Of a stretch of DNA of 64,000 nt, positions 21,290 to 55,218 are shown piece after piece (position 1 is the stretch's first letter; each line of letters begins with the position of its first letter). The DNA is taken from the NCBI RefSeq assembly GCF_030686945.1, contig NW_027122681.1, positions 1,738,938 through 1,802,937 of the forward strand, in the 5' to 3' direction. The notes under the pieces were generated by a model that was not told the DNA's origin, searched no databases, and saw only the letters and a program-made list of their open reading frames with translations. The DNA comes from Centruroides vittatus (taxonomy: Eukaryota). The translations under genes were made by a program, and so were the position numbers.

Positions 21290-21590
21290 TCATTTAAAAT
21301 ATACGCGCTCCACCTCAAATTAGTAGTGGCTTTTTCCCTGTACATCATACTTTCCCATTAACAATAGAGTCGTGCCGGTCTAACACCTGTCGGGGGAAGA
21401 ATTTCGAATTGGAATGACGTGACTTCCGGTTTGAGTCGGATGCTCGTAGATAGTTAATCGGGGCTTTTTGCCCCTAAGGTTTCCATATATGGTCTCGTTT
21501 TTCACCTATCTAACTTCGTTCCCGAGATTAAGGACGGACAGACTGACAGACGACATTGGGAATTTATATCACTACAGTTTATTTTTCAAA
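21290..21590 (-). mobile_element. SINE-like retroposon, copy b, with a 16-nt poly(A) tail.
   Basis: Homologous to 1190-1480 over the full length. A plus-strand T16 run at 21282-21297 abuts the homology boundary, which places the poly(A) tail on the minus strand. Confidence 0.5.
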
Positions 21591-22062
21591 TTGCGGCCCG
21601 AAAAGTCTGTAAAATCAAGGTCATTTCGGACGATTATTGGCGAGCATACAATTACAATCGCTTTATACGTGGGTTAATATCGATATTAACCTAGATTAGA
21701 TTTATAAATGATTATTTCAATGTAATATCGAATCTTGCTGTGGTATAGTACGTGTTTTTATATGCCGTATGTAGTTTGAAATTCTGGTATGAATTGTATT
21801 CATTCATAACCGAAGTAAATGCAGTTGGTAAGACATCAGAAGGGATCAATAAGCAATTACTGTAGCAAGAATGCAATATAGAGTTATTACAGTAAATAAC
21901 CTCCGTCATATCAATCGGAAATTATTAAATGATTGATTTTATATGGCGAATTCTGAAGAAGGAAAAAAAGGGCAAGAAACAACTACTTTACGAATATTTC
22001 GTAACGAATTAGAAAAAAGAATTGGAACTACAGAAAGCTCTTTAAAATAGTTTCGTATTCTC

Positions 22063-24723: not shown

Positions 24724-25399
24724 GATCGATTAAGTGCCAACGTTGACAAAAGGAATGGATTTGGCGGTCAAACGGCTCTTTTCAGAGCCAACTTTTTACT
24801 GGTTAAAAGTAGTCGAATATATTTTAAACGATATTAACACATTACACATTTTTAAGTAATATTAATCGAGCTATAACTTCAAAGGTATTAAGTACAAAGT
24901 ATGTAAATCTGGATAATTCGTAGTAGCGAGTATTTCGTCCCCCGAATTTCGAACTAACGAGGATTTTCTGTGTATTTTTATCAGTTGTAGCAGTTTCTTC
25001 TCGAACATCTATAGAAATAATTGTAACGCATTATATTTTAAAATTATTCTTTAGAATACTGTACTCGTCATTGCTAGGTTCACGTGGAAAAAGGAAGTCT
25101 GCAATCCACTGGTTATGGAATCTCTGCATCCTAGAGGGGGATTCTTCGAGAGGTTTTATTCTAACAACGTGACAGGGCCATTGCCACTAGCTGTTTTATC
25201 CTCCTGATATAACTAATATCAGAAGGATAGAACAGCTAATTTTATCCTTCTGATAGATGTTTTATTAGAAAATGGCCGAGAACGGATGATGGAGTCTAAC
25301 AATTTCATTATCCGTTCCAATGGTCTCCAAGACAAACTATGTGTGTTTCTGGAGGGGCGCCAATAAAGTGTCGGCGCCAGTTATGTTCGCTACACCACT

Positions 25400-30056: not shown

Positions 30057-30512
30057 TCAGATTTGATTCTGGATTCCTCAGTATGATGCCTGTAATTACC
30101 TCAGCCATATGGCCGTCGCCAATAAAACAGTGACAATTATATAAAAGGGAAAATTGTCAGTCTGGTGATTGGCAGATGCAGACAACCAACTGCTGTATAG
30201 TGTGAAGCAACTTTTCACATGCAATATGTCACAGCAGTGGTGTGCCATGACATTTGATGATAGGGAAGCTGTGTTTCTGTAAGAAGACGACTTCCAGGGG
30301 CAATCAGTGATGGTCTAGAGTCCATTTATATTCGTTTGTTCAATAAGCCAGTAAGAACTGTAGACTTCTCTAAATGTATTTTTAATAGATTATCTGATAT
30401 ATTGAACTTGTTTATTTATTAAGTACATCAAATATTTTAATGGATTTTTTTAAAACTCCTGTCAACTATACAAAACATAACCCAACCGATAGGAGTTTCC
30501 TGGTAAGTTATA

Positions 30513-31067
30513 CGTGGTACGATCCAAAAGTTCGGGGACTGCAGTAATCTATGACAACAAAAGCATGTATTTGAAGTTACGGCGTATGAAATGGATTCTA
30601 CCAAACCACCTCTACGTGTTCAGGTTAATTTCACCCATGTCATGTGATTAAACCGCGAGCGCTGCTGTTTTTTTCCGGAGATAGTTACCTTTGTTCTGCG
30701 ACATAATAAAAGTAGAGTTTCAAGAACAACCTCCAACATTAAATTTTGTCAGCGTTTAGGTAAAACACCTACGGAGATTTTAAAATTGCTAAGAAAGGTG
30801 TACGGTGATTCTACGGTGAAAGGTCACGATGAAGTCGAAATGTTGGAGGTTGTTCTTGAAACTCCACTTTTATTACGTTGCAGAACAAAGGTAACTATCT
30901 CCGGAAAAAAAACAGCAGCGCTCGCGGTTTAATCACATGACATGGGTGAAATTAACCTGAACACGTAGAGGTGGTTTGGTAGAATCCATTTCATATGCTG
31001 TAACTTCAAATACATGCTTTTGTTGTCATAGATTACTGCAGTCCCCGAACTTTTGGATCGTACCACG
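30513..31067. mobile_element. Mariner-derived foldback MITE, copy 1. About 555 bp, fully palindromic, with a TA target-site duplication.
   Basis: ta|cgtggtacgatccaaaagttcgggg...ccccgaacttttggatcgtaccacg|ta. The arms 30513-30790 and 30800-31067 are reverse complements. The arm encodes FCQRLGKTPTEILKLLRKVYGDSTV, a mariner N-terminal HTH-like segment. Confidence 0.75.
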
Positions 31068-31856
31068 TAAATCAAGGGCAAGGGCGGCCAAATATCTAGC
31101 ACGCAGGTGACTAACAGCCCAGAATTGGTCCTGGATAGAATCATTGGAAGCGTTATACGATATTTTGGTGTGTGGCTTCCACTAGCTAAACCACGTCAGG
31201 TTGGTGCTCTGTAAAGTGCATGCGCAAATGCCTATAATCTGGTTGTTTTACTTCATTCGCCATGGAAGCTGTCCTGTATTCAACAATACAGCAAACACTT
31301 CCATTGGGAATATCCCTATATGAATTTATATTTGAAAATACAATAGCAATCTTATCGTTTTTTTCACATGTAGTATAGAAATTTGTAATAAAATATATAT
31401 TGCGGTTATAATAAAATGTAAATTTTAATTAATTCAAAGTATATTCAAATATGAAAATAATTGCGCAATATGTATTTATAGTTTAGAAAATACAAGGAAA
31501 GTGGCACTTCCAAGAACGGCACGCCACTGTGTCACAGTGAAGTCAGACCAGTTTGCATGACATGAATAGTGCTATTAATGCCATATGTTTTCACATTCAT
31601 CACACTTGTCACTTTAAAACCAAATGAAAATTTTTTAAACAGGCAAATTTATTGAAACCTGTTAATTCCCTTTGTACACGATTTGTTTTGATCTAAACAT
31701 TTTTCAAGATTGTGTAAAAAAAAATCTGTGTTTTATAATGACAAATAATCTGTATTAAATAAAAACATTAACATAACAAAACATACTTTAGAATTTTATC
31801 AGTTATAAAATAAAAAAAAATAAAAAAATAAGAGACTTATTTCAAACTTACAATAC

Positions 31857-35042: not shown

Positions 35043-36408
35043 TTTTAATTCAATGAATATTGAATAGGTAGTTAATTCCTTCTGTGTAATTTCTGTTTCT
35101 CCGTCTTTGACGACAATTTCAGTATCACCAAATTTAACTACTTTTGATCCTGACTTCTTGGAAGAAAAATCTACAGGTCTATGCCTTTTCATTACAGATT
35201 GTTGAGGAAGAGACAATGGATATGTTTGCATAGAGAATTCTCGTAATTTAAGAAGATGTTGCTTTTGGAGCTGCTCCCCTTCATCTGATGAAACTGTTGA
35301 AAAATTATCATCATTAAATTTAAAATCTGAAAATGAAAAATAGATATTTGATATTTTTTTTACTTGAAGAAGGTAAGTTAGGTGGTACACCAGGTCGACT
35401 AACAAATTCTACTAATGTGGCTGATGGACTGCTTCCAAAACATGGTACTGAGGAGGGGGAGTGACCACTTCCAAAGCCTGAAACTGAGGAGGGAAATGCA
35501 CCACTTCTAAAACATGGTACTGAAGACTGTGTTGGACCACCTCCAAATTGTGGTACTGGAGGTGTTGGACCACTTCTAAAACATGGTGCTAGAGAGGGTG
35601 TTGGACCACTCCAAAAAGTTGTGGTACTGAAGAGGGTGTTGGACCACTTTCCAAAATCATGGTACTGAAGAGGGTGTTGGACCACCTACAACGATTGTGG
35701 ACTGAAGAGGGTGTTGGACCATTTCAAACAAATTGTGGTACTGAAGATGGTGTTGGACCACTTCTAAAACATGGTGCTAGAGAGGATGTTGGACCACCTC
35801 CGAATTGTGGGACTGAAGAGGGTGTTGGACCACTTCCAAAACCTCCAAATTGTGATACTGAAGAGGGCGTTGGACCACTTCCAAAACGTGGTACTGAAGA
35901 GGGCGTTGGACCACCTCCAAATTGTGGGACTGAAGAGGGTGTTGGACCATTTCCAAAACCTCCAAATTGTGGTACTGAAGATGGTGTTGGACCACTTCTA
36001 AAACATGGTGCTAGAGAGGATGTTGGACCATCTCCAAATTGTGGGACTGAAGAGGGTGTTGGACCACTTTCAGCATCTGGAAGAGGTTCATCTCCCTTCT
36101 CAGTTTCAAAGTCTGAAACCAAGTACAATGAACTGCTTCCAAACCGTGGTACTCTGGCAGAACAAGGTTGAATTTTCTGCATTAGAGCTGAGTATCCAGT
36201 TATTACTTCTTGGTTGGATACAAAATGATCCTCATGTGCTGATCTATGTGTAGTGGCCTCAAGAGATTTTCTTGAAACTGCACATAATTTTGAATTCACT
36301 GCATCGTAAGTTTCTACAAAATTTGCATCTAATTCAATGCTTTCATTTAGATAAAACCTATCTTCTCCAGTTTCTACATTTAGTTTTTTTAATTTAAACA
36401 ATACTTAA
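35043..36408 (-). CDS. Large coding exon, or exon plus mini-intron, for a low-complexity protein. It contains at least 12 tandem units of the roughly 12-aa unit GPTPSSVPQFGG, which is FG-repeat-like. Local frame breaks mean it may be a pseudogene or may contain assembly errors.
   Basis: Minus-strand frames that read ...LPDAESGPTPSSVPQFGDGPTSS...SGPTPSSVPQFGGFGSGPTPSS...: 35724-36401, 35320-35685, 34959-35405. The last two frames join cleanly if a 37-nt intron (CTTCAA|gtaaaaaaaatatcaaatatctatttttcattttcag|ATTTT, about 35325-35361) is spliced out. 3' donor TTAAAAG|GTATGAG at 35042. 5' acceptor tttctaaatag|TTTAAG at about 36409. A stop and indels in the repeats lie around 35620-35730. Confidence 0.45.
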
Positions 36409-36574
36409 ACTATTTAGAAACTCTTTACTTTGTATAATATAATATTTTATACTTAATATGTTTTTTTAAAAAAAATAATAAAATATGTACCTGTTTGATT
36501 TAAACTCTTAACACGACATTTCCTTCCTGTGATAATAAAAATTCAAAAATCAATTTTAAAGCTTTCATAAAAAA

Positions 36575-37500
36575 TCCTCGTTACTTCGAACTCGGTTTGA
36601 AATATTGTTAGTTCGTAACTGTACTTTTGTCTCGGCTGGGGATATAGAGATGTACAGTACACGTTAAGGAATCTGATTAGTTCGAAATACGATTACTTTG
36701 AAATTCAAAGTGAAAATTCTGTCCATACTGTGATATGAGTATGTTAACTTGTTCATTTAGATCAAAATGCCTCCATGTTATAAGAGAACAATAGACCAAG
36801 AACAATGCTAAACTAGTCAATATGGCTTTGCTTTTACAGTAACACATTTTATCTCTTATCTCATAAAATATGGCTGAGTTTTTGGAATGGCAAGATTGGA
36901 CTATAAGTAGCAGATAGAGATATTTGTAGGGCTCTAGGGCAGAGCCAGCGCTAGAGGGTATACTGCTCAAGGCAAGACATGCATTTCACATTCCTTATCC
37001 CCCTACATAAAATGAAAAAAATTGTGTTTTGAATTGCCATACACCTTACTCTGTCAATTGAGAGTCAACTCGTGCCATGTAATATAAATAAATATAAAAA
37101 ATATGCCTGAAAATTGTGTGTAAATTTATGAAAATTTACCACCCAGGGAAAATGTCCAGTTTGCCCATATGGTAGCATCAGCCTTGGCTCTAGGTTACTA
37201 AATTTGTGCAACTTACTACTTTTTGGGCTGCTGTAAAAATAATTTGGACTCTATTTCAAGGAACTCTGCTTTATTTTTTTTTTATAAAACCTATCCAGCA
37301 ACCTTTAAGGTTATCACTGAACATGTGCTGTTTACTTGCAATTTATTTATAAGTAATTATTAACAAAAATAGCATTCTGTATATATGTATTCCATTTGCT
37401 TAATAAATCAATTAAATGGCATGTGGCATGTTATACGGAAATGTGTAAATCTCTGAATTATCTAGTTTTGATGTTTTCATCCCTTGAATTTCGAACTAAC
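36575..37500. mobile_element. MITE family 'M2', copy 1, about 930 bp, with TIR aaatcctcgttagttcgaa...ttcgaactaacgaggattt.
   Basis: 5' end aaaaaatcctcgttacttcgaactcgg at 36570. 3' end cccttgaatttcgaactaacgaggatttcc at about 37470-37500. Internally collinear with 53410-54145. An isolated 3' end is also present at 24880-24970. Confidence 0.55.
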
Positions 37501-38069
37501 GAGGATTTCCTATATTTAAATATAATTTCTTTGATGATTTATTATTATTAAAACAACATAAAAGGAAATAATTTACCATATTTTTGTGCATATAACCCAC
37601 AGGTTATTTGCATTTGATATACAGATTATATGATAGGGCAAACTATAGGCTAATTTTAAATTCAATTACAAACCTGTTAAATGTCTGTTCCTTCGTCTAA
37701 AGCCACCAAGAATAGTGCCAAACATTGGGTATATGGGTATCCATAACTATGATTAACTTTTTAGAAAATTACATGTAACTCATGCATGAACAATGAGCAA
37801 AATAATTTATTAAACACTTCTTATAATTTAACCTTTTTTCACTCTTTCCACCCTTTGAGCACAGAGATTCTTTTAATTGCATGCATTATGGGTCCGGCCA
37901 ATCGGAGAGAAATGAGGCCCAATGTATCTGGGATATACCATCTATGAAAAATCTCTGGTGTTCTCTGCTTGCATTCAATCCTTGGTCCCCAAGAGTGGCA
38001 GGCTGAGGCCTTTACTGCTCCAGTCACTGTCCAACACATTACATTGTATTAGGAGCTTGGAGCTAACAC

Positions 38070-38384
38070 CAGGGGCAGATCTAGGGGCCTAGGGCTTATT
38101 GAAGTCCTATGGGGCCCCATTTTTTGTTAGATTAAGAATCTTTAAATTGGGATTTAAAATTACAACTTGGTGACCTGACCTGACCAATTACGTTACATTG
38201 ATTACAATAAACAAATACTATAAATTATCATTATTATTAATATTAACCATTTTTTACTATATGATAGCTGCTCTTTGTTAATGAAAAAGTATTAAAAATT
38301 TATGATAATTCAAATTTTGCAGGTCCTTGACACTTGGGGGCCCAGGGTTTTAAGCCCTATTAGTCCCTATGTAGATCTGCCCCT
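38070..38384. mobile_element. hAT-like MITE of about 315 bp with an 8-bp TSD gctaacac, inserted into another dispersed repeat.
   Basis: TIR caggggcagatctaggggcctagggcttattgaagtcc vs the reverse complement at 38335-38384. gctaacac is duplicated at 38062-38069 and 38385-38392. The host repeat (37850-38069 plus 38393-38430) is homologous to 45240-45450, which lacks the insert. Confidence 0.6.
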
Positions 38385-39730
38385 GCTAACACTTCATACG
38401 GAGCACACTCTTCTCCCCGTAGCATTTTATAATTTATTAATAATAATACTATTTATTTTTGTCAATAATATGTCTATGGATAAGCATTTGTATTATTTAC
38501 ATGTGAAGTTTAATACATTCCTCTCAGATTTTTTTTTTGGTCATTTCCCATTTTTTATAATTGCATCTAAAATGAAGAAAAACAATATTCTAATGTTTGA
38601 CATGATATCTTATAAACACAATTTATAAGATACCATGTCAAACATCTACTAATACCATGATTTAAATGGCTACTCCAGAGTTGTGGGACATGTTTTGCAA
38701 AGTTTTTATTTTCATTCTAGCAATTTTCTGCAAGTTATATGCCATTGCAAGTTATACACACAAAAATACAGTACTTAATTTTGGTACATCATCATCAAGC
38801 AATAACTGATGTAATTCTGTATTTTGTTCCCATGAAGTTTCATGTAAATTAGTGTGTGAATGCAAATACCTCTTTTCGTTATTTTTATACCGATAACTGA
38901 AACATCAGAACTAGACTTTAGTCGGAATTTCATGTTAACAAATAATCTAAAGAAAGTTCATCATTTCTTCCAAAATCTTCCAAAATAAATGCTAACCATT
39001 TTAAATCACTGTAATTATATTAATTATTATTTGAGAGGTATGAGATACACACTAATCAATACAGTAACCATCAGAGCTTCGACTAGATTCTGAAAATATA
39101 CAGCATAAAATGCTGCATATTTACACAAACAAGTAGAATGTCAAAACAAGTACCAGAGTGTTTATTAGCAATTTTGTTTAAAGATATTGATTTTGGAACA
39201 TTATTTATATCAAGAAAATTCAAAGATGTAATTGAAAGTATTCCAAAAACATTAATATTCTACAATTAAAAGCTTTACTGGCTCAAATGTTTCAAGCATA
39301 TTTTGGTATTTTTGTAAAATTACAAAGTCCTTTATCAATTTTATTTGAGATTCAGAGTATAAAAGCTAAGAAACTGAAAATAAAAAATATTGCATTATAA
39401 TTAAATACAAATTACAGATTCTTTTTTCAATTACTGCATTGAAAATGGTTATTAAATTAAAGAAATAATTTATAGTAGCCCTTCAATTTAATTAACAGAC
39501 TTAAACAAAAAGTTATGAATTTTTCCTTTAGGATAGAAAATTTTTTTCTTTATGTATAGACCACACTAAAAGATTGGGCCAATAAGGCAATGAGTACAAA
39601 TTACTCAATATACATTATATTTTATTCATACATTGTAACATCTGATACGTTGTACAGTGGCATGTGATCCTATGGACAAAAAGCTCAATTGCCTGAGGCC
39701 TCCCATACAAATCTTTTATAAAAAAAAAAT

Positions 39731-40502
39731 ACAGTGGTGCCTCATATAACGTACTTAATCCGTTCCAGGTGCACGTCCGTTAAGTGAAACGTCCGTTATA
39801 CGAAACGCATTTTCCCATAGAAATACATGTTAAAAAATCTAATTCGTTCCGCAGCATAAAATAACCGTACTGTATCATAAAAAAATGAACATGGGGTGCG
39901 TTCTTTTATTCCTCCGCCTAACTCTGCGCGAGCGACATCCGTTTAAAAATTCCTGCGGAACGCGTTCCTAAATTCCAGTGGGAGTGCGCGCCGTCGAACG
40001 GCAAAAACGACCGCTTGTAGCAGTAGTTTTCGGTGGAAAGCAACATGGCGTCCTCCATGGCTCAGATAGTTTCGTTTCCGGGTCCATTATGTGGTTTTAT
40101 GAATAAGAATTTAGAAATTGTGAAAGCGCAAGTTAGCGCACGCGGGGATGTAAGTGTCTTTACGAGTTTTTTTCGAAGCTATTTTGAATGCTCTTTCAAC
40201 AAATAATCTATTTTATGGTTAAATTTTACAATTGGGACCCTTTTTTGCCTTTTAAAGCTCATATTTTAGAATTATAGATTCCTCCATCACGATACTATCG
40301 ATAGTGCGGGCGCCACCATCTTTCTTTCTTTCACCGTCGTTCCTAAATGCCTACAAACAGCAGCGCACTCCCATAGTAGCGGAGACGCAGAACGACCGCT
40401 ATTAAAGAACGCACCCATGGAGCAGTCACCAATTATGCCGGAAAGTCCGTTGTTCGCAGCCAGTCCGTTGCTCGAGGCATACGTTATATGAGGCACCACT
40501 GT
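39731..40502. mobile_element. Tc1-like non-autonomous element of about 770 bp with TA TSD, CAGTG termini and long subterminal inverted repeats.
   Basis: ta|cagtggtgcctcatataacgtac...gtacgttatatgaggcaccactg|ta. An internal inverted pair is gggagtgcgcgccgtcgaacgg / catggggtgcgttc...gaacgcacccatgg. The insertion is absent from the paralogous position in copy B of the duplication. Confidence 0.7.
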
Positions 40503-40863
40503 ATTCCCAAAAAATTTTCCCTAAGAAAAAAATGTCTGAAGTCAACAGGTAAGTAGAACCCCCTAATTCAAATCTGCCTGGACCCCATGAAGCTATAACA
40601 CACCACTGACGTTGTAAGTTCATAATTAATATGTGTATTTAAACATACTTGGTCTAACAGGCTTTAAGCAATAGTGGAACCCTTCACCCAATTGGTTTCT
40701 TAAATTGAGGACCTACCAGACTAAAAATAATTTCAATTCTCACTAGAATAATCAAATTTGATACAATTATATCTCCAATTCAAATTAATTCATATTAATT
40801 GTAGTATATTAATGTTACAATAAATTAAAATGAAAATATAATATATACTTTTTTCTCGTTTAC

Positions 40864-40920
40864 CAATAATTTCCTCAGAATCCTCAGCAATGGCTGAGTG
40901 TAATGTTGCAACTCTTTTAA
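40864..40920 (-). CDS. Second 57-nt exon, in frame with the previous one, encoding VKRVATLHSAIAEDSEEII(G).
   Basis: Intron gtatttttaagtatacaaatttagactttcttttataccatttttttaatgttttttttttccag|TTAAAAGAG. Donor ATTATTG|GTAAACGAG. The frame is continuous from exon 40986-41042. The copy-B counterpart has diverged (acceptor ccag mutated to ccgg). Confidence 0.45.
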
Positions 40921-40985
40921 CTGGAAAAAAAAAACATTAAAAAAATGGTATAAAAGAAAGTCTAAATTTGTATACTTAAAAATAC

Positions 40986-41042
40986 CTTCTGTAGGGAATA
41001 CTTGCACTGAGGAAAGTACTGTAGCAGGCATATCTTTATCCA
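40986..41042 (-). CDS. 57-nt symmetric (phase 1-1) exon encoding (V)DKDMPATVLSSVQVFPTE.
   Basis: Acceptor ttttactttcag|TGGATAAAG. Donor ACAGAAG|GTATTTTTAAGT. It is followed by a textbook 62-nt intron with a polypyrimidine tract. The paralogous exon at 48394-48450 keeps the frame with nonsynonymous changes (VNKDASATEPTSVQVFPTE). Confidence 0.5.
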
Positions 41043-42644
41043 CTGAAAGTAAAATAAATTAAAAATAGGAAATTAGAATTTATGTAATATTAGCAATAAA
41101 TTTCATTATACTGTATTGTAAACTAAAAGCTATTTACGTCCGATGACGTACATTGTAGTTTATATTCAAAAAATGGTAAAATCCCAAATAAAATATAACT
41201 CATCGAATTTGACCAAAAAGCTAAAAATCATAATTTAATTTTTAAAATTAACAAAGAAAAAACTTCATATGCATAAAAGTAGTTCAAGAAGTCATTTATT
41301 TGTGTTAGAATTAATGGAATAAGGAGCAATGCAACACTCGAGTTATCTGCTACGGGAGTGGTACCACACAGGATGAAATTCTATGGAAAACCAGCCCAAT
41401 TTAAGTGTTAGGCATGCGAAGAAAACCTGGAAAACAATACTGAAGGGTACAAACTAACAATCAACTACCAGTATTTGTGCTTTTGTGTAGTAAACTGTGG
41501 ATTTATTCAGGATAAAATGTTTTTCAAAATAGCAACACCTTATTGTCAGGTCCAACTGAAAGAACAGAATTTGAATAAAAATATCACCAGATTGTTCTAA
41601 AAAACTGTTTTCTGGCTTTTTGAACACACAGGCAATGTTGTTTTCATTCAAATTACATTCTTTCAGATTCTAGTTGGATCTAATAAAGAGATGTTGCTGC
41701 CATTGTGATAAATGTTTTATAGATTAAACTATCTTCTTACCAGATTACTGGAATGAATCACACACAATCAAGAACCTTTAAAATCCAGTAACATTTCATT
41801 AAAATTTGTGTTACTGAACTTTTAAGAACCTTTAATGTTTTATTCTGAATAAACCTGACTCCAAGGAATGGTTTATAGTATTTACACAGATTTGTTTGTT
41901 TATCTACAGAATCATTAATGTTAGAACATATTTTAAAACCTGGCCAGTGATTTAAATAGGGTTTGGCCAGGCCAGTGACTAGATGGCCAAGGAATGGCCA
42001 TCTAGTCATTGGCCTGCGGGCCCAACATATCCAGAATGGACCAACCTCAAAAATTTCCTGTTGTTTTTTTCACCCATCTGGATTTGTTTTTGGGTCATCT
42101 GTGGCAGTAGGCTGACACTTTAACCATTCAGCCGTCTGCCCATCATCAAAATACATTTATAATATACAACAAATTTTCTTGAAATACTTTTTCATAGCTA
42201 GCCATTATTACATCATCATCAAAATAAAATTGGTATGGACTGACTTAATTTGAGTGCAGTTGAATCTATTGCTATAGAAAATACATCTGGCAAGAATATT
42301 GATCTCTATAAAATATTTATATCAATAACATTTTTATTTTTATTGTTTGTACCATATTGACCTGCAAACTCGACTTCACAAAGACTGAGTAAACCAAGTC
42401 TCTGAAAATGACAAGTTTATAGTGACGACGCTAGTCTAAATATGGGGCTCCTACTCAAATTTTTGTTTTAAATTCCACGATTTTGATGACTTTTCCTGAG
42501 CAACTTTCTACAAATTCCGACCCTCACGTCCCCTACAGGATGGCACATTGACAAAATAAATCAGCATTTGACTTATTATGCACATATGCTATTGCTTCTC
42601 CAACTTTTTAGTTAGTTATTTTTTTTTTCTAATTAACAGTTATA

Positions 42645-43516
42645 CGTGGTACGATCCAAAAGTTCAGGGAATGCAGTAATCTATGACAACAAAAGCATGT
42701 ATTTGAGGTTACAGCATATAAAATGGATTCTACCAAACCTTATCTACGTGTTCAGGATAATTTCGCCCATGTCACGTGATTAAACCGCGAGCGCTGCCAT
42801 TTTTTTCCGGGGATAGTTACCTTTGTTTGGCGACGTAATAAAAGTGGAGTTTCAAGAACAACCCCCAACATTAAATTTTGTCAGCGTTTAGGTAAAACAC
42901 CTACGGAGACTTTAAAATTGCTAAGAAAAGTGTACGGTGATTCTACCATGGCGAAGTCGAAAATGTACGAATAGCATTGGCGTTTTAAAGAGGGCCGAGA
43001 ATCCATCGCAGACAATCAACGCTCTGGCCGACCTTCGATTTAACAGGATACACAGGTTGAGTTTATCCTGCAAACACATTGAGCATTGAGAGACAACTCA
43101 ACATTTTCCTCATTCTGTTAAATCGAAGGTCGGCCAGAGCGTTGATTGTCTGCGATGGATTCTCGGCCCTCTTTAAAACGCCAATGCTATTCGTACATTT
43201 TCGACTTCGCCATGGTAGAATCACCGTACACTTTTCTTAGCAATTTTAAAGTCTCCGTAGGTGTTTTACCTAAACGCTGACAAAATTTAATGTTGGGGGT
43301 TGTTCTTGAAACTCCACTTTTATTACGTCGCCAAACAAAGGTAACTATCCCCGGAAAAAAATGGCAGCGCTCGCGGTTTAATCACGTGACATGGGCGAAA
43401 TTATCCTGAACACGTAGATAAGGTTTGGTAGAATCCATTTTATATGCTGTAACCTCAAATACATGCTTTTGTTGTCATAGATTACTGCATTCCCCGAACT
43501 TTTGGATCGTACCACG
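42645..43516. mobile_element. Mariner-derived foldback element, copy 2. 872 bp, perfectly palindromic about position 43075, with a TA target-site duplication.
   Basis: ta|cgtggtacgatccaaaagttcagggaatgcag...ctgcattccccgaacttttggatcgtaccacg|ta. Each arm retains the mariner 5' end and translates to CQRLGKTPTETLKLLRKVYGDSTMAKSKMYE*HWRFKEGRESIADNQRSGRPSI. This is HTH_48-like (compare [25 protein letters not shown]), with an in-frame stop. Confidence 0.8.
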
Positions 43517-45239
43517 TATATATATATATATTTATTTATTTATTTATTTATAATTGTCAAATTATTCAAATTAAAAATTAAATGTTTTATTAAATTAAAG
43601 TAGTTTATCCTGTTATTAATTCACAACCATAAATCTACATGGCTTTGAAAAAAAGACACAAGCAATTATTTTATTATTCATTAACAAATTCTTTATAATC
43701 CATGTACAAAGTATATATTAAATTTATCCCTTAATACACTGGAAAAAAAATCAGAAATTGACATTCGCTTTGTGGTATTTTGCAGTGGCATCTTGGTAAT
43801 ATATCATATTCTTTGTTAAGACATGGAATTTATGCTATTTTCGACTGTCTCCAGAAAAGAATGACAACTTATTTAATCTTAACATTAAGTTGTAGATATA
43901 AAATTAGATTATACGTATTTCTTTTTTTTTTTTTTTTTGGACGACATGACAAGTTTTACAGAATGACAAGTTATTGAGAGTCGAGTTTCTGGGACTATAG
44001 TTTATTCTAGTTGTATATTTACAATTTAATGTTAAAATAATGCTGAAAGTAAAAAAACCGTCTAACAACATTACAGTGGTGACTTGTGCTTTTAATTTGA
44101 CTCATTCCAAGAAACCATTTAAAGTCCAAAGCAATTTTTTTCTATTAGAAATAACAAAGTGAGTTAATCCATTCTCTGACCCTAAATAATACTCATTTCG
44201 ATAAACTTAAAACGGCAAATATATGTAAGTTAAGGTAAAAATAACAATTGAATGCCCTAACAATAAAATATGTAAATACTGTCTAATAAAATGAAAATTG
44301 CATTTATTGGTTGCACACCATGAACTTTGACATCTTAAACATGGCTGCCAGATTTGCCACATATATTGCTTTCATGCTTTGCGATAAGTTACTTTTTCAT
44401 CTCAATTGTTGTTACAATCTACTTCTTAGATGTTGTGGTCAATAGGTACAAGGTGTATTGGGTTGAACAGAAAGTTTTTGTCAACTATTTTTAACAGCTG
44501 TCTTTACTTAACATAAATGTATGATTTAATTATAATAGTTGCAAAATTTAACACTATCGTAACACACTGTTCATACTGTTTTTTTTATTTGGATTTCTCC
44601 TGAAGATGAGTTATAATTTTGTCAAAAGTACTTGTGAATTTTACCATAATTAAATTTTAATTAATTTTAATAGAGAGTTTTTCTTTATTATAAGTTTAAT
44701 TAGTTTATTATTAAATATTAATTATTTATTATATAAATTTTTATTTATAGTTACAGAATTGCTAAATTAAATACTAAAGTTATCATCTTACAAGATCGTT
44801 TTCTAAATTCAGAACTTTTTGATTTCTCTCTGGTACGACCTATTCAAAAAATTAAATATACATTTAATAAAAAGCATTATCAAGTTTTACAGACAGACAT
44901 AATTAAAATAAGAACAATGAATGATGACGGAATTACAAATGCACATAATAATATAAACAAAATATAGGGAAAGATCAAAACACAGTGAACGACCGAATAA
45001 AAACTTGACATATTTTCATTAATTGCAGTTGAAATTGCTAAAAAAATTCTCATTACATGTGAATTATAATTATGGAAAACTGATCACTAACAGAAGCTAA
45101 TATAAAATTGCAAACAGACAAATAAAAATGGTTAGTGCAAACATCATTGAGTCTGTACAAACAAGAAGGAATTCAGGATTCTCATCCGTGTTAGCATATT
45201 TGAAATATGTTATGCATGTATAAATTTAAGAGGAAACAA

Positions 45240-45450
45240 CTTCAGCCAGGCTTACAATGAAGATGGCCAATTGGGGAAGAACAAAGCCCAACATATCTAT
45301 GATAAATCTCTGGGGTTCTCTGCCTGAATTCACTCCATGGTACTCAGAGTGGCAAGCTGATGTCATTACTGCCTTAGCCACCACCTGACTCATCAGACTA
45401 TGCGAGGAGCTTGGCCCAATTCTCTACGGAGCATATTCTTCACTGGTTGA
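45240..45450. repeat. Copy of the dispersed repeat that is also found, interrupted, at 37850-38430.
   Basis: agcccaacatatctatgataaatctctggggttctctgcctgaattcactcc...ggagcttggcccaattctctacggagca aligns to 37910-38069 plus 38393-38420. Confidence 0.45.
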
Positions 45451-46151
45451 ATTTTTAATTAATTATTATGTTACAAATATCATGCTCAGCTGGTACTGGT
45501 GCCAAGTGCTATGCTGGACTAAAATCAAAGTATAGCTATCCAAACAAATGTAACATTAAGCTGTGTTATTGGTATGTGTCAACATCTAGAAATTTCCTGT
45601 CAGTGTGGCATGTTCAATATTACAGCTTTCTGTAGTACCATGTATATGTTTTTATTAAGGTTTAATGTTTCTAGACTTTTGCATAGTATATGTGGTGTAA
45701 CACCAGTAGAAGAGAGGACAACAGATACAATAAATACCTTATCCATCCTCCACATCTGTCTTATTTCTTGAGCGAGTGGAGTGTACATGTTGATTTTTTC
45801 ATTGTGAGTATTTTTTGTTATGAGTATTTGGAATGGAGATGTCTATTATATAAGTGATCTTACTACATTTGTCAGAGTGATGTCGGGTCTATTGTGATGA
45901 ATTGTTTTATCTGTGATTATGACACTGTCGTAGTATATTTGTAGTATGGTAGATGGGTGTTTAATAATCTGTGCTTTTGTGCAAACTCTTGGTGTATTAC
46001 ATTTGCTATTTGATTATGCCTATGTAAATAGTCTGTCTGTGCTAAGAGTTTGCAAACAGAAGTTATATGTTGTATTGTTTCTGGCAGAATGTGGCATTTT
46101 CTGCAAGAGTCATTTGTTAGTGATGTATCCTTCAGGATGTGTTTTCTGTAG

Positions 46152-46565
46152 TTTTTATAGGGTACGTTCGTTAAGTCGAACGAGTTAAACGCATTAGTAA
46201 CGAATCGTTCGAAAAGTAGTAGTCTTGCTCAGTGCACATGCTCTGCGGTAATGACGTATCGAACGAAACTCTAACGAAGCTCACGAAGGAAAGAGTTAGT
46301 TTACTTCGTTAAGAAAATGGCGCCCGACGATATCGATGTTTCTAGATCTACTCGAGTGTTTAAATTGTGAATTAAAAGGTGAAATGATTGAAATAACTGT
46401 CCATCCGAAGTAACCTAAGAAAAATATTTTGGATAAAGCTGCACTAGCAACATTCATATCTTTGATTTTAGAAACAGCCATTTAGTTTAACGAATCGTTC
46501 GAAAAGTCTAACAAAACAAGAATAACGATGATGTCATTCTCGTTTAACTCGTTTGACTTAACGAA
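46152..46565. mobile_element. MITE of about 415 bp with roughly 33-bp TIRs and subterminal direct repeats.
   Basis: gggtacgttcgttaagtcgaacgagttaaacg vs the reverse complement of cgtttaactcgtttgacttaacgaacgtaccc. Internal taacgaatcgttcgaaaagt is duplicated at 46195 and 46488. Confidence 0.6.
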
Positions 46566-46849
46566 CGTACCCATAATTATTCTTAATTGACAAAAATAAA
46601 GCATTATTCTTAAACAGGTGTTTGTATCTTCCACACATGAAATTTGATACATTCCCTCTCAGTTTCCATTTCGTTTCATTTCACTTATTTTATAATTATG
46701 TTTATAATGATGAATGAACGAAGAAAAATGTTTGAGATGGTACCTTATAAACTGTGTAATAGTGCCATGGTTTCAAGAATTAATCCAAAGCTAATGGGTA
46801 TGTAGTGGGGTGGGTTCTGAACAAAAGTTTTTTCATATTTCTGTTGTAG

Positions 46850-49460
46850 AAATTTTTTGTGAACTGTATACCATTGCTGGTTACACACACAAAAATACGG
46901 TACTTGATTTTGTTACATCATCATCGAACAGTAACAAATCTATGTTCTGCTCCTATCAATTTTTATGTACTGTACATTAGAGCAGTGATCTCCAAACATT
47001 TTTGATTATGAACACCTAAGATGAAAATAATTATAAGTTGTACCCTCTGTATTACATTATAATTTGCTAAATTTCCACTATAAATACATAATTCCTGCTA
47101 AATTTCCCACTACCCGCACAATTTGAGTTTTTTCCATGTATGATCGCAAGTGATTGTGAACCTACTTCTTTGGGAGGATGAATAAGATTAGACAGACTGC
47201 AGACAGACACACATACAGTATTTTGAAGGAAAACTTGCCATACCCCATGGGATATGCATACCCCACTTTGGAAACCACTGCATTAAAGCATGAATGATAA
47301 TACCTCTCTTAATTATTTTTATAACAATAACTGAAACATTAAGTGTATTCTGAATATATTTAGATTTTTGCCTGAATTTAACGTTATCAAATAATGTAAA
47401 AAAAATTCAAGCAGATCCAGGAATGTATTTGTAAATATTCTAAAAGCATTAATCATTCTACAATTAAAAAGATTTTCTGGCTACTTAAACGTTTCCAATG
47501 TGTTTTGATATTTTTTGTAAAATTATGAAGCTACTTTGTTACATTATACTTTGAAATCTCAAGTAAAAAGCTATCAAAGCTAAGAAATTGAAGCAAAAAT
47601 ATTACTACATAATCAAATACAAATTAAAGATTTTTTTTCTCAGTTAATTTGAAATGTTTATTACATTAAAGAAATAATTTGCATCATTTATAGGAAAAAT
47701 TAAATACAGTAAACCTTTGATTTAACAGACTTCAGACTTAACAAAAAGTTATACATTTTTCCTTTAGGACAGAAAATTCTTTTTAATATTCATGTATAGA
47801 GCACACTAAAACATTAGGCCAATGAGTCAACAAGTATAAATTACTCAATATACATTATAACAACATTCCAATACATCCTGTATGGTGTAAGTTTGTAATA
47901 AGTATGTGTTTAAAAACCTATTTGATAGTGTTTTAAACCTATTACATTTAATAGACTTTCAGCAATAGTGGAACCCCTTCCCCTAATTAGTTTCTTAAAT
48001 CAAAGGCCTACCAAACTAAAAATAATCTCTCTTCTCATAAGAATAATTAAATTTGATATAATTATATCTCAATTCAAATTAATATGAATAATGTTACAAT
48101 AAATTAAAACAAAAGTGTAATATATACTTTTTTCTTCTTTCTCAGTGATTTCCTCATTGGCACTAAGAACTTCTAACCTTACTACAATTAAATTTGATAT
48201 AATTATATCTCAATTCAAATTAATATGAATTAACGTTACAATAAATTAAAACAAAAGTATAATATATACCATTTTCTAGTTTCTCAATGATTTTCTCATT
48301 GGCACTAAGAGAGAGTAACCTTCCTACAACCGGAAAAAAACCATTAAAAAAAATAGTATAAAAGAAAATCTAAATTTGTATATTTAAAAATACCTTCTGT
48401 AGGGAATACTTGCACTGAGGTGGGTTCCGTAGCAGAAGCATCTTTATTCACTGAAAGTAAAATAAATTAAAAATAGAAAATTAGAATTTATGCAATATTT
48501 ACAATACAGTATAACAAAATTTATTGCTAACTAAAAGCTATTTACGTCCGATGACGTACATTGTGGTTTATATCCAAAAAATGGTAAAATCCCAAACAAA
48601 ACATAACTCATTGAATTTGACCAAAACACTGAAAATCATATATTTTAATTTTTAAAATTAACAAAAAAAGAGAACTTCGTACGTGTAAAAATAGTTCAAG
48701 AATTCATTTATTTGGGACAGGATTGATGGAATAATGGGCACAATACAACACTTTGGTAATCTACCAACGGAAAGGTGCCACACAAGAAGAGTTTCTATAG
48801 GAATTCTGTCTCCTATTTACGTGTTAGGCAGGTGAAGAAAACCTGGAAAACTCTACAATTTCCAAGCTTTTGTATGTTTGTCGGTTGATTTCTTCCAGGA
48901 AGAAAGCAACCACCTTTTCATCCAACTTCACAAACTTGCAGCCAATAACTAATGTTTGTGGTTTTATGCACTTGACCACCGATTTATTTGGGACAAAATA
49001 TTTTTCCAAACAGTAACATCATCTTGTCAGATCCAACTAGTTTCAGAAAGAACATGATTTGAATAAAAACATTATTGCAAGAGTGTTCTAAAAACTTTTT
49101 TTCTGACTTTTCAAACACACTGGTGACATTTTAGATCTGATGAGATATTGCTGCTCTCTTGATAAATGTTTTATTCTGAATAAACCCAACTCCATAAACT
49201 ATTTGTAGTGTTTGGAATGATTTGTTTATCTATGGCGTCATTAACATTACATCCCATTTTAAAGCCCAGCCAGTGATTTATATAGGGTTTGTCCCAGGCT
49301 CATGACGACGTTGCCAAGTGCTGAAGGACAGGACTTCACTTATCCAAGTTGGGTTCCCCCAAAAAATTCTCAGGATTTTGACCCGTTTGGATTTGTTTTT
49401 GGATCATCCACAGCAGTAGGCCAACACCTTAACAGAATAGCTGCTTTCAACACTGTAGCT
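46850..49460. repeat. Segmental duplication copy B, the partner of 38690-42140.
   Basis: See copy A. Copy B contains the paralogous mini-exon at 48394-48450. Confidence 0.75.
48394..48450 (-). CDS. Paralogous 57-nt exon (VNKDASATEPTSVQVFPTE) in duplication copy B. The downstream partner exon appears degraded.
   Basis: Same acceptor and donor context as 40986-41042. The reading frame is preserved. The following acceptor ccag is changed to ccgg. Confidence 0.35.
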
Positions 49461-49699
49461 GCTCTCTACACATGTGTTACTGGTCTGCATAAGTACATTA
49501 TGGTGCCAACCCTGTCAGATACACCTGTATTTGTACATGGTGTATGTGATGGGGTTGATGCGATGATGTCATCACGCCGGGTACTTGCATGTGGATATAT
49601 CTGCATGTGGGTGGACCCATCTGGAGACAGATAGAGAAGCGATGTCTTGGTTCCTAAGACATGGGAAATATGTTTTCTGATGGTCTTAGACAACACCTG

Positions 49700-49955
49700 T
49701 GAAAGGGTCATTCGAACCCCAAAGGGTCGTGACCCACAGGTTGAGAACTGCTGATCTAATACCTTTCAGGGGAGAATTTTTGAATTGAAATACCATGATT
49801 TCCAGTTTGCATCAGAAGTTCTTATATAGTTAATTGGAGCTTCCTGCCCCTAAGGTTTCCATTTATGGTCTCATCTTTCATCTACCTAACTTGTTCGCAA
49901 GATTAAAATAAAGACGGACAGACAACAATGGGAATTTATAGGTCTACAATTTTTC
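49700..49955 (-). mobile_element. SINE-like retroposon, copy c. Its low-coordinate end carries a tRNA-like T-arm (GGGGTTCGAATGACCC on the minus strand).
   Basis: Homologous to 1255-1475 and 21340-21580 from agggtcgtg...gaattgaaat...taaggtttccat..atggtctc...gacagac...gggaatttata..tacag. Confidence 0.45.
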
Positions 49956-52900
49956 AAATTGCAGTCCAATAATACCCATTTGTAAAGGTACACATGTACA
50001 GTGGTACAGTGAAAGTAAAGAAATGTTAAGATTGTCATTGTAACATACTGATTTTTATTCAAATTTCACCTGAAGTTAAGTTATAATTTTGTCAAAAGTA
50101 CTTGTAAATTTTACTGTAATTAAATTTTACTAACTTCAATAGACAGTTTTCCTTTAATTATAGATTATTATTACATATTAATTATTTATTATATAAATTT
50201 TTATTTAAAATTAGAGAATTTTAAGTTTAATTGCTAAACCAAATAAAAAAATGATCCATTATCTGTCTTAAAAAAATCATTTTACATTTGACTCACAATC
50301 AAAATCACCATCAAAACATTTCTTCTTCTTCTTCTCGATAGGACCTATTCGAAAAATGGAATATATATTTCATAAAAAGCATTATGAGGTTTGACTTAAA
50401 CAATTAAAACAAGAAAAGACAATGCTGATTGAATTACAAATGCATAAGATATTATAAACAAAATGTACGAAAAGGTCAGAACACACTGGACAACAGAATA
50501 GAAACTTGATATAATATAATATGTTACAAAGTTTAAAGACTAAACAACACAAAAAGAAAAAAAAAAGGAAAGATTTTTCTGCGTAGAGTCTTCTATTCAT
50601 TCATTTACAGCTGTCGAAATACAATTAATGACAGTGGAGTTAATCTTTCTTTAGCGACTCTTCTCCACCCATAAGCATGCAAATTGTCTAAAAATTTTTG
50701 AATCACTTGTAAAATTAATTTTAAAAAAGTTATTTAAAAATTCAGGACGATAAAGAAAGGTCAACTCTGCTATTGTTAACCAACTGTTGTGAACAGACAA
50801 ATCGAAGACTTCATACAGAAAAATCTCCCTTTTCTTGTGTCGTTTAGTCTTTATATTTTGTAATATTTTAATATACATCATCCTTAATTTTTAAACAATT
50901 TTTTCAAAATTATTTTTTACTATTGACCGCAGCAGTGAAGAGCATTAAATTAATTTTTAAAAACCTAAAGTAGGTAATTCCATATTATTTTCAATCTTAT
51001 GTGAAGAAATGGGTAGAGAGCATAAGCATTTTCTCTTCAACTGCCATCGTAGCTAAGTAATACAACTTGCCGAAGGAAATTGCTTTGCTCATTTGTATGA
51101 ACTGAGACAAGTAGTTCAAGTCTTCCTCTCTGAGAGTATGAACTTAGTGACAAATTTACAGATGAGCAAGGGACATGAAGGTTAGCTTTCTTGATTTGAT
51201 ATCTTCCAGCAACAGAATGAGTTGAATAAACATCTATAGAGTAAACATACAACATCCTTCACAGTTCATGATAAAATAAAAGCTTTAAGAAAGAAACTTC
51301 ACTTTGCAACAAAAAAAGACATGAATGGGCAACTTCATTCTTTCCATTCTTAGAATATTTTTAGAAAAAATAAACTCGAGCTTTCTGGTTCTTTTACAAC
51401 ATAGACAACATAACGGAGCATTGTCTACATTTGATTGAAGACTTTAAAGAATATTTCTGAGAATTCAGACAGCAAGTTCTGGATGCAGAACTCTTTCTGT
51501 GGTAGAAGACTCCAGTCTACTAGACTTCTTTTCAACGAAAGGAAAGAAAGAAATTATCGAACTGTTCTATGATGAAATTTTTGAATTCAATTCAAAAAAA
51601 TATTTTTGACAGACTTTTGGTTGAGGACTAAATACATTTTCTCATATTGCTGTCCATGTCTTCAAGTTTATGATTCATTTCTTAACAACAAATCTATGTG
51701 AGAATGAGTTTTTATATTAAAAAGTAAGTACAGGTATCCCTCATATAACACAGTAGTTCTGTTCCGAAAAAGTGCCATGTTATACAAATCCATGCTATAC
51801 GAAACAAAGGACTAATGCAAAATATGGAATTAGGTTCCAAAAGTTAACAAAAGTATCCTATTCTTTTTTGTTACTAAGAGAAATATGTTTATTAAAGTAA
51901 TCGATAATTTATTTCCAATCAATGATTAATTAAAAATTACAATATTATGCATTAATATTAATTTTAGTTAAATGAGGGCATTTTCTTTTTACAAAGTATC
52001 GTTATCATCTGAGCATTTTTGTTGATCTTGGTCAGAAATATCAGCAATGTCTTCATTTTTCTTATTTTTACCATAAAAACTTTTATGGATGACAAAATAA
52101 AAATGCGTTATTAATCAAAAATTTTTTCTAGGGGCCCTCGTTTGTTTGGTCGAGTACCAAGCAATTTTTCTCCGGAATTTGTGTTTGAATACTGAATTAT
52201 TCGAGTTGGAAATTGTTCAAGTACTGAGATACCACTGTATCTGCACTTAAAAATTGTGAAATTTTGTACTGACAATTTCCTGAACTTTTGAACTGCTTTA
52301 GAGTGAATGTATGGGGGATATTCCTAATTTTCCAACTGTGTTAGAGCAAAACTGCATTGTAGAAATGCCTTGTTGTATAATGGATACCTGTAGTGCATAA
52401 ACTAAATTTGAAGTTGGATCTTTTCTTGAAAATTTTGACAGGACAATCAAACATCAGAAAGCCGTGTCAAAGGCACACATCTCACTGAAAACAAAGATGA
52501 ACCAATAAATAACCAGCCAAAAACAACAGCATAACTGGTTATTTATAGACCCACACTTACATTTGAGGATTCACAATCTCCAATTTCAGAGAACTTCAGA
52601 ATTAGGATTAGAGATTTTTATTTTTGAACAGGTTTAATTTTACTTCTTATATATTTTTTAAACTGATCATAACTAATCCCAATAAATGATGATGTTAAGA
52701 TAATAAAAGTAGGATTTTTATTAATAGTATATTTATTTTCAATAGATTAAAAACTACCTGCAAAATTACTGAGTCATAAGAATCTTTTAAAATTATCATA
52801 TGGAAAATATTACTGTGAGGAGTAGACCTTTGTTTAGATTAGTCATAGCCAGGGGTACAAAGTTTGAGAATAATTGTTTTATACTGAAATTAATAACATA

Positions 52901-53409
52901 TTAAAATTTAATATATTAAAAAATACAAAAGTACTTGATTGAAAACATATAGCTGTCCGTTCTTCCTCATTACATTCTGAGGACACAGATCCTCCTGCTA
53001 AATTAAAATAGAAACAAAATTAACTGAAAATGTTCATTAATTAATAAACGATGTAATATATTATTTTGAATAGAGATAATATTAATTTATTATATGCCCT
53101 AAGTTTAGATAATTTACTAATACCACACTTTTATTCCTCAGAATATTACTTATAATATACTAATGCTAGGTATGTTTTATACTTCATCATTTGAGAAATA
53201 TTTTATGAAGAATCCGTTTAAACTATGTGCTGTTGCAACAAAATTGTGTATTGGCACTAAATTATTTATTTCCATTGACTGCTATAGCATTCATATTTAG
53301 GTGAAATGAAAACCAAAAATAATTCAAAAGGATAATACCACAGTTTCCATATTTAAACTCAGAAATAATTTATCCAGTATGTTATTTCTCAAATGATATA
53401 CAGTAAATC

Positions 53410-54145
53410 CTTGTTAATTCGAACTAAAGTTCGAATCCCATTAGTTTGTAACTGTACTTTTGTCCTGGCGGGGATATAGAGATTTACACATTAAGGAATT
53501 CGGTTAGTTCTAAATATGGCTACTTCAAAATTAGAAGTGAAATTTCTGTCCAAACTGTCATATGCATACGTTAACTCATTCATTTCAATCGAAGTGATTC
53601 CATGCTGTAAGAGAACAACAGACCAAGAACAAATCTAATCTGGTCAATATGGCTTTGCTTTTACAGTAACACATTTTCAGGTGTCACCTTACCCATAAAC
53701 TACCCCTTTTGTTCTCTTACCTCTAAAATATGGCTAGTTTTCGGGATTGCATGACTGGGCTCTGAGTAGAAGACTGAGATATTTGTAGGGCTGTAGGTTA
53801 CTACATTCAGGCAATCTACTTTTTGGGCCATTTTAAAAATAATTTGGACTAGATTTCAAGGAATTCTGTTTTACATTTTATAAAAGCTATCTGGCGACCT
53901 GTGAGGTTCTCACTGAATACGTGCTGTTTACTTGCAGCTTATTTATATTATTATTAATAATTATTAATTAATGAAAATAGCAATTTGTATAGGTAGCTGT
54001 ATTCCATTTGCTTAATAAATTACATCAGTTACAGCATTTGGCAACTTATACAGAAATATATAAATCTCAGATAATTTGAAATTTGATAATTCAAAGTTGC
54101 GAATATTTTGTCCCCTGAATTTCGAACTAATGAGGATTTTCTGTA
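53410..54145. mobile_element. MITE family M2, copy 2.
   Basis: Collinear with 36575-37500: gtaactgtacttttgtc..gg.ggggatatagagat...atatggctttgcttttacagtaacacatttt...ctactttttgggc...gtgctgtttacttgca...tccatttgcttaataaat...cccctgaatttcgaactaatgaggattttctg. Confidence 0.55.
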
Positions 54146-54442
54146 TTTATTTTTAGTCAAGTGTAAACATTCTCTTATCAAGAAATCTGCTATTTTATCT
54201 ATTCATTTTGTTTTATATTCTCATTTGATTACAGCAACATACAATGGAATTTGTATTCTAAAAAATTATACACCACACCTTGAACGTATGTGCAATTATG
54301 TGTTACTGTATTTATGTGCTAAATTTCTAGTATTACAGTAACAGCTGTACATAACTGTTCTAGTAATTACAGTAGTACTGTTTTGAGTCTAATATTATTA
54401 GTAATAGAATTAGAAGTGACAATGATGTTAAGAGAGACATAC

Positions 54443-54552
54443 CTGAACGAGACTTAGACGATGCAGAATCTACTATTAAATCTTCATAAGTATAATCTGC
54501 TGACAAAAGTATAAAATCTGCTGCCAAAGGCATAGAATCAGTACAACGATAA
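54443..54552 (-). CDS. Exon 2 of a minus-strand gene, encoding (S)YRCTDSMPLAADFILLSADYTYEDLIVDSASSKSRS.
   Basis: Acceptor ttttgtatttttattatatgttag|TTATCG. Donor CGTTCAG|GTATGTC. The phase matches exon 1 (2+1). Confidence 0.4.
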
Positions 54553-55144: not shown

Positions 55145-55218
55145 CTTTCATTTAAATCTCTGGCAGAATAGCCTGCTTTATAAGAGAATTCTGAAGTATC
55201 GGAGTCATCAGTCTCCAT
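55145..55218 (-). CDS. Exon 1 (start) of the same gene: METDDSDTSEFSYKAGYSARDLNE.
   Basis: ATG at 55218..55216, with an in-frame TAG 10 codons upstream. Donor AAATGAAAG|GTTAGT at 55144. Confidence 0.4.

Follow-up and report, generated by a model that had tools for sequence, protein, structure and literature searches.

The DNA analysed here is a stretch of 64,000 nucleotides from the scorpion Centruroides vittatus (contig NW_027122681.1, positions 1,738,938 to 1,802,937), hereafter called the window, in whose coordinates all positions are given. It is AT-rich (about 31% GC), eukaryotic in character, and contains a gene on the minus strand in which a segment with three very short exons has in all likelihood been duplicated in tandem. 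The published genome of C. vittatus contains 30.85% GC and comes with RNA-seq data from carapace and telson (PMC11304958). A query composed of the mini-exon peptides, two frames read by eye in the upstream copy of the segment (copy B), and the open reading frame (ORF) at 35727-36404 was matched over 100% of its length by XP_067141081.1, annotated in RefSeq as “uncharacterized protein isoform X2” from C. vittatus. The 90% identity cluster of this protein contains only the four isoforms X1-X4 (XP_067141080-83), and two exact-protein look-ups for transcript or locus records returned no record. The protein, which a first-pass annotation of the same DNA had called unknown, is thus present in RefSeq, albeit as an uncharacterized protein without homologs.

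All four isoforms could be mapped exactly to the window by spliced alignment, with GT-AG introns and a total of 12 coding exons. The coding sequence covers about 19.5 kb of the minus strand, beginning with the ATG at 55218 and ending with the stop codon at 35724, so that the gene continues both beyond 42.1 kb and below 40.86 kb, where the first-pass annotation had proposed to extend the prediction. Exon 1 (55145-55218, 74 nt) carries the start codon and is followed by exon 2 (54443-54552, 110 nt) and exon 3 (52935-52997, 63 nt). The next seven are mini-exons, four of them in the upstream duplication unit B and three in the downstream unit A, and the gene ends with exon 11 (36491-36526, 36 nt) and exon 12 (35724-36313, 590 nt), which contains the stop codon. 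Every one of exons 3-11 is in phase 1-1. The unit B exons are exon 4 (50297-50344, 48 nt, peptide PIEKKKKKCFDGDFD), exon 5 (48394-48450, 57 nt, NKDASATEPTSVQVFPTE), exon 6 (48270-48323, 54 nt, RLLSLSANEKIIEKLEN, with the acceptor ttgtag), and exon 7 (48128-48181, 54 nt, RLEVLSANEEITEKEEK). Those of unit A are exon 8 (44792-44839, 48 nt, RTREKSKSSEFRKRS), exon 9 (40986-41042, 57 nt, DKDMPATVLSSVQVFPTE), and exon 10, which has two alternative donors and is either 72 nt (40849-40920) or 57 nt (40864-40920) long. The 57-nt phase 1-1 exons reported previously at 40986-41042 and 48394-48450 are exact matches to RefSeq exons. The same holds for the second 57-nt exon of copy A, although the intron that separates it from exon 9 measures 65 nt (40921-40985) rather than 62 nt.

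Exons 5-10 occur together in every annotated isoform, and the seven mini-exons are included in all or most of them. Exon 4 is a cassette exon that is absent from isoform X4. The 72-nt form of exon 10 is used in X1, X3, and X4, with the donor GTATAT that aligns with the donors of copy B, and the 57-nt form is used in X2, with the upstream donor GTAAAC. In isoform X3, 45 nt (35915-35959) are additionally missing from the repeat of the last exon as an “intron”, which may be a repeat-length variant instead of real splicing. All of the annotated variants, namely the 48-nt skip, the 15-nt donor shift, and the 45-nt gap, are in frame. A tblastn search of the window with the exon peptides as queries (E<=50) revealed no further copies of the mini-exons. 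The possibility that exons 3 and 11 are more ancient paralogs of the cassette exons or of each other was considered and rejected, as the searches gave only AT-rich chance matches.

A self-BLASTN comparison of the window together with a repeat finder showed that 38487-42124 (in copy A) is homologous to 46621-49433 (in copy B) on the same strand, with eight high-scoring segment pairs of 68-80% identity, the best of which pairs 40750-41435 with 48186-48851 (79%, E=1.8e-168). The tandem segmental duplication of two collinear, diverged blocks that the first-pass annotation had recognized is thereby confirmed, and a global alignment of A and B makes visible both the collinearity and the indels that are specific to each copy. 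The blocks had been placed correctly, but their limits of 38.7-42.1 kb and 46.85-49.46 kb were slightly too narrow, and two further homologous pieces and a third pair of exons, of 48 nt, also belong to the duplication. One of these pieces, also identified by self-BLASTN, pairs 44572-45012 with 50044-50513 (72%, E=9e-71) and holds exons 8 and 4, which are paralogous and share the acceptor GAATAG. The other was found in a more sensitive search and pairs 37940-38060 with 45295-45414 (75%, E=2.5e-20). With these two pieces included, unit B extends over approximately 45295-50513 and unit A over approximately 37940-45012, both on the minus strand, so that the units lie head-to-tail, with about 280 bp between them, inside the exon chain of a single RefSeq gene. 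Each unit contains three types of exons, of 48 nt, 57 nt, and 54-72 nt, in the order 48, 57, 54, and 54 nt in unit B and 48, 57, and 57 or 72 nt in unit A. The difference in size between the two units is explained by later insertions, and unit A has been enlarged by transposons.

The third exon type has a more complex history in copy B. Where the third exon of copy A has a CAG acceptor, the aligned position in copy B reads CGG, in agreement with the previously noted mutation of this acceptor. Copy B instead uses a TTGTAG acceptor located 6 nt, or two codons, downstream of the CGG, and the reading frame is kept. A local tandem duplication at 48045-48329 consists of two copies of 142 bp that are 90-92% identical; an internal duplication had been noted here before, but with a unit of 150 bp and with limits at 47990-48330. 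The extra copy also carries the TTGTAG acceptor and has produced exon 7. Both 54-nt exons, 6 and 7, are in frame in all four isoforms. The K2P (Kimura two-parameter) distance between the 142-bp copies is 0.11, compared with 0.12-0.38 for the main duplication, and the local duplication is therefore the younger of the two. The paralogous exons have lengths of 48/48, 57/57, and 54/54 nt, and the third exon measures 72 nt in A versus 60 nt in B, a difference of 12 nt, when counted from the aligned CAG/CGG acceptor to the GTATAT donor (the spliced exon in copy B is 54 nt).

The introns of the two units differ at 464 of 2110 aligned positions (22%), with K2P distances of 0.12-0.20 near the exons and 0.28-0.38 further away. 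The exons are more diverged, with differences at 58 of all 165 aligned positions (35%; Fisher p=2e-4 versus introns), and this excess over the introns is the one mildly unusual feature of the locus. In the 48-nt pair, 28 of 48 positions (58%) differ (p=5e-8 versus the intron rate). The 57-nt pair is intron-like, with differences at 10 of 57 positions and proportions of nonsynonymous (pN) and synonymous (pS) differences of 0.18 and 0.20, respectively. Exons 6 and 7 differ at 12 of 54 positions, almost all of which change the amino acid (pN 0.23, pS 0.05), versus 2 of 83 positions in the intron adjoining the 142-bp duplicate (Fisher p=3e-4). Inspection by eye with exon 10 as an outgroup showed derived changes in both exon 6 and exon 7. 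The 48-nt and 54-72-nt exon types are purine-rich (59-70% purine).

The best-conserved part of the duplication is intronic and located upstream of the 57-nt exon on the minus strand, where 41043-41225 is 87% identical to 48451-48633 over 183 nt with no indels. A palindrome, ACGTCATCGGACGT, with three CpGs is kept here in both copies (41136-41149 and 48544-48557, minus strand), and this stretch could be a splicing or transcription-factor element. A structured intronic RNA, such as a small nucleolar RNA, was considered for the conserved core and rejected on the basis of the fold z-scores (-0.86 for 41100-41225 and -0.50 for 48508-48633). Searches against Rfam identified no family, either in the whole window at the gathering threshold or in 40700-41500 at E<=1.

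The duplicated area is bracketed by a pair of direct repeats (36572-37518 in intron 10 and 53405-54149 in intron 2) of about 750-950 bp and 74% identity. We considered the pair as a recombination substrate and rejected it, as there is no hybrid copy where the units meet and a part of the repeat is found again at 24881-25010, which is matched by 54054-54188 and 37439-37528. Because of these matches, the pair is probably a dispersed repeat with no link to the duplication. Exactly at the upstream limit of unit B there is an inverted repeat (50507-50880) with 49-nt arms that are 80% complementary and 276 nt apart. It may be another miniature inverted-repeat transposable element (MITE) that hides the true boundary.

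The alignment and the mapping of elements confirmed that both copies have received later insertions of their own. Copy A, but not copy B, contains a Tc1/mariner-like MITE of 770 bp at 39732-40501, noted in the first-pass annotation at 39731-40502, with perfect terminal inverted repeats of 26 nt starting CAGTGGTGCC, the CAGTG type of end, and TA dinucleotides at both flanks (39730-31 and 40502-03). The element is nested in another repeat, of which the flanks lie at 39655-39711 and 40505-40584 and an uninterrupted copy at 7727-7915; a second or autonomous copy of the MITE itself was not found within the window. Also specific to copy A is an 880-bp foldback within intron 8 (42641-43520), with 62 nt between two 409-nt arms that are 100% complementary. 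A second copy of this foldback, at 30506-31072, shares 92-93% identity with it. The perfect palindrome in intron 8 could have inserted very recently or could be an artefact of the assembly. The second copy contains an ORF (30648-30929, plus strand) with a weak match to the HTH_48 domain of the Mos1 transposase (E=0.019). In copy B, the previously reported insertion of about 300 bp corresponds to a B-specific segment of about 320 bp at approximately 46970-47290, which was either gained by B or lost from A. A B-specific block near the unit junction (45415-46620) contains a MITE-like element of 413 bp (46160-46572), with terminal inverted repeats of 32 nt (97%) beginning GGGTACGTTCGTTAAG, and minus-strand ORFs (45603-46228) with a weak match, below the cut-off, to the reverse-transcriptase zinc-binding domain zf-RVT (E=0.099). 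A dispersed repeat that is about 200 bp long and has 71-77% identity between its copies occurs at 1287-1474, 21373-21604, and 49749-49972, the last of these in a B-specific gap in intron 4.

Apart from HTH_48 and the weak zf-RVT match, the Pfam search of the long ORFs in the window gave only an unrelated match to Cullin. It comes from an ORF fragment on the plus strand (26306-26653; E=2e-6, below the gathering score), and there is probably a cullin-like gene on this strand at around 24-27 kb, as suggested by the sequence match.

The encoded protein has few recognizable features. No Pfam domain was identified in the full-length protein at E<=1, a sequence search of PDB revealed no relative, and among 5.8 billion proteins no homologs at E<=1 were found beyond the four C. 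vittatus isoforms. An exhaustive phmmer search of 1.84 billion representatives recovered, beyond the isoforms, only low-complexity matches to the C-terminal repeat. The structure predicted with AlphaFold from the single sequence has a mean predicted local distance difference test (pLDDT) score of 41, with residues 311-420 below 50. The only confident helix is at residues 123-161 (pLDDT up to 87), which are encoded by exons 6 and 7, and a low-confidence helix at residues 189-210 is encoded by exon 10. Given these predicted helices, the product of the third exon type seems to be an amphipathic or charged helix, and the nested duplication would have doubled its length. The protein as a whole is predicted to be mostly disordered and is apparently lineage-restricted. 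Its N-terminus, METDDSDTSEFSYKAGYSARDL, is acidic and, by inspection, has no hydrophobic core or signal-peptide-like stretch. The C-terminal repeat, encoded by the last exon, comprises about ten GPTPSSVPQFGG units, and the underlying tandem repeat (35425-36069) consists of about 17 copies with a period of 36 nt and higher-order periods of 117 and 234 nt. Several reading frames of both strands contain long ORFs at this repeat.

We consider it highly probable that the locus has been formed by an intragenic tandem duplication of a three-exon phase 1-1 cassette within one 12-exon gene. A segment of about 5.5 kb with three consecutive phase 1-1 mini-exons would have been copied head-to-tail inside the gene, most likely, we infer, by unequal recombination or by a template switch during replication. 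The cassette would have consisted of a 48-nt exon for a charged linker, a 57-nt exon for a segment ending in “...SVQVFPTE”, and an exon of 54-72 nt for a helix-prone segment. Since every cassette exon starts and ends in phase 1, the duplication would have kept the reading frame while adding about 53 residues. Later, the acceptor of the third exon in the upstream copy would have shifted by 6 nt, and the 142-bp duplication would then have created a fourth mini-exon and added another 18 residues. Transposons presumably inserted into the introns of both copies, the nested Tc1-like MITE and the 880-bp foldback in A, and a MITE, the reverse-transcriptase-like block, the dispersed repeat, and the 320-bp piece in B. 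The cassette would also be a source of splice variants, by the omission of exon 4 and by the 15-nt alternative donor in exon 10. The frame, the splice sites, and the composition have been kept while the amino acid sequence has not, which fits a disordered, low-complexity linker.

Four observations weigh against this interpretation. First, the usage of the exons, and thereby their transcription, is inferred from automated RefSeq models produced by NCBI, a pipeline that normally makes alternative isoforms only with transcript support. Second, the order and timing of the events, including which acceptor is ancestral, are deduced from the C. vittatus sequence only. Third, no microhomology or flanking repeat that would be diagnostic of the mechanism was identified at the unit boundaries. 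Fourth, the amino acids of the duplicated exons show no signs of purifying selection (pN is similar to or higher than pS), so that only the retained frame, the absence of stop codons, and the splice sites mark the cassette as coding.

In one alternative, the mini-exons are non-coding, the RefSeq reading frame is an artefact of automated prediction from a non-coding or spuriously spliced transcript, and the duplication is neutral intronic or other non-coding DNA. The lack of a homolog in all databases searched and of a Pfam domain would agree with this, as would an exon divergence at or above the intron rate with similar pN and pS and the several open frames across the tandem repeat of the last exon. 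Mini-exon-like frames are moreover frequent by chance; the 17.9 kb of introns in the gene contain 180 open phase 1-1 segments of 45-75 nt between AG and GT, 12 of which have good signals, and our exon calls are consequently based on the match to the annotated protein and not on the sequence pattern alone. However, a single frame is open across all 12 exons, or 1260 nt, in a genome with 31% GC, and the coding frame is the sole frame that is free of stop codons in all seven mini-exons. The exon length changes are all multiples of three, versus 6 of the 33 gap events (18%) observed over the 2110 aligned intron positions. This and the stop-free frame speak for selection on the reading frame. Furthermore, the three annotated splice variants are all in frame, and the splice sites of every paralog have either been retained or been replaced in frame. 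Taken together, we find the non-coding alternative improbable.

The first-pass annotation had suggested a degeneration of one copy, and in this reading copy B would be decaying into a block of pseudo-exons after having lost the acceptor of its second exon. The CGG in place of the CAG acceptor and the high divergence of the exons (35% over all of them, 58% in the 48-nt pair) are the observations in favor of decay. Against it speaks the TAG located 6 nt downstream, which restores an acceptor in frame and which, as TTGTAG, is also present in the extra tandem copy. Furthermore, all four copy-B exons are open in frame and included in RefSeq isoforms, and there is no frame-breaking indel in the exons, in contrast to the 27 gap events in the introns that are not multiples of three. 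The features expected of a pseudo-exon are accordingly lacking in copy B, where the frame is open, a usable acceptor is at hand, and all length changes are multiples of three. The modeled transcripts indicate that copy B is intact rather than degenerating and that both copies are kept in the annotated mRNAs, and we regard its decay as very unlikely. That the two large homologous blocks instead represent two adjacent paralogous genes, created by a whole-gene duplication and wrongly fused in one model, is hardly credible, as only three internal exons have been copied, all as consecutive parts of one 12-exon reading frame, while there is a single copy each of the exon with the start codon, of exons 2, 3, and 11, and of the terminal exon of 590 nt, and neither an ATG-bearing first exon nor a terminal exon is located between the units, so that the gene duplication mentioned in the first-pass annotation can be discarded.

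The divergence of the duplicated exons may have more than one cause. It is possible, though rather doubtful, that the mini-exons are under exon-specific accelerated (diversifying) evolution of the kind known from venom toxins, here in an apparently non-secreted orphan protein of a scorpion. In an alternative that is no more standard, the main force acting on the exon bodies may be selection for a purine-rich content of splicing enhancers, needed for the definition of the micro-exons, and the lysine- and glutamate-rich peptide would be a by-product. Since the exons are purine-rich, slippage or selection on splicing enhancers explains the exon divergence equally well as a venom-type acceleration.

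For the PLA2 venom genes of snakes, the summary in PMC7285919 of Nakashima (1993) states that the introns are more conserved than the coding exons. The gene described here resembles toxin genes, in the terms of that summary, in that the exons are more diverged than the introns, the nonsynonymous differences equal or exceed the synonymous ones, and the host is venomous. It differs from them in that the protein has, by inspection, neither a signal-peptide-like hydrophobic stretch nor a cysteine framework. The about ten F/G repeats (GPTPSSVPQFGG) with uncharged spacers rich in serine, threonine, and proline and with low pLDDT are reminiscent of the FG-repeat nucleoporins. However, there is no sequence homology to these and no anchoring domain, and the proteins that match the repeat are unrelated and of low complexity. 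The repeat periods in FG nucleoporins are usually longer than the 12-residue period seen here, and nothing supports membership in the nucleoporin family. The 770-bp element in copy A is similar to Tc1/mariner-derived MITEs with regard to its perfect 26-nt terminal repeats beginning CAGTG and its TA flanks, but differs in that a transposase-coding parent was not identified within the window.

Arrays of mutually exclusive tandem exons are also known, for example in insect Dscam1. Like these, the tandem exons in the C. vittatus gene are of near-equal length and phase and are separated by short introns. In contrast to these, each annotated isoform includes the copies jointly, and no exclusive use was seen. 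The closest parallel, in keeping with the rules of exon shuffling, is the intragenic tandem duplication of symmetric (phase 1-1) exons that encode disordered segments. Schad, Kalmar and Tompa (2013, PMC3632108) describe that symmetric exons, disorder, and internal tandem duplication go together, and such duplication is the classic way in which genes encoding disordered proteins become longer (PMC3632108). The locus agrees with duplications of the type described there in that the copies lie head-to-tail in one gene, the exons are in phase 1-1, the segments they encode are, by prediction, largely disordered, and one of the duplicated exons is alternatively spliced. It differs from them in that a block of three exons was copied, a nested duplication of a single exon followed, and the host is an orphan gene without recognizable domains. 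The event is thus of an ordinary kind, and the locus is a new example of it in an already annotated but uncharacterized orphan gene. As such, it illustrates cleanly, and in a datable form, how a young gene restricted to one lineage may grow by copying symmetric mini-exons, in which a disordered protein would have been lengthened without a break in the frame, by the copying of a block and then of one exon once more, and in which a lost acceptor appears to have been rescued in frame without killing the exon. If the excess of exon over intron divergence is confirmed by population or outgroup data, the locus would also provide a small test case for distinguishing positive selection from a turnover of micro-exons driven by mutation or splicing.

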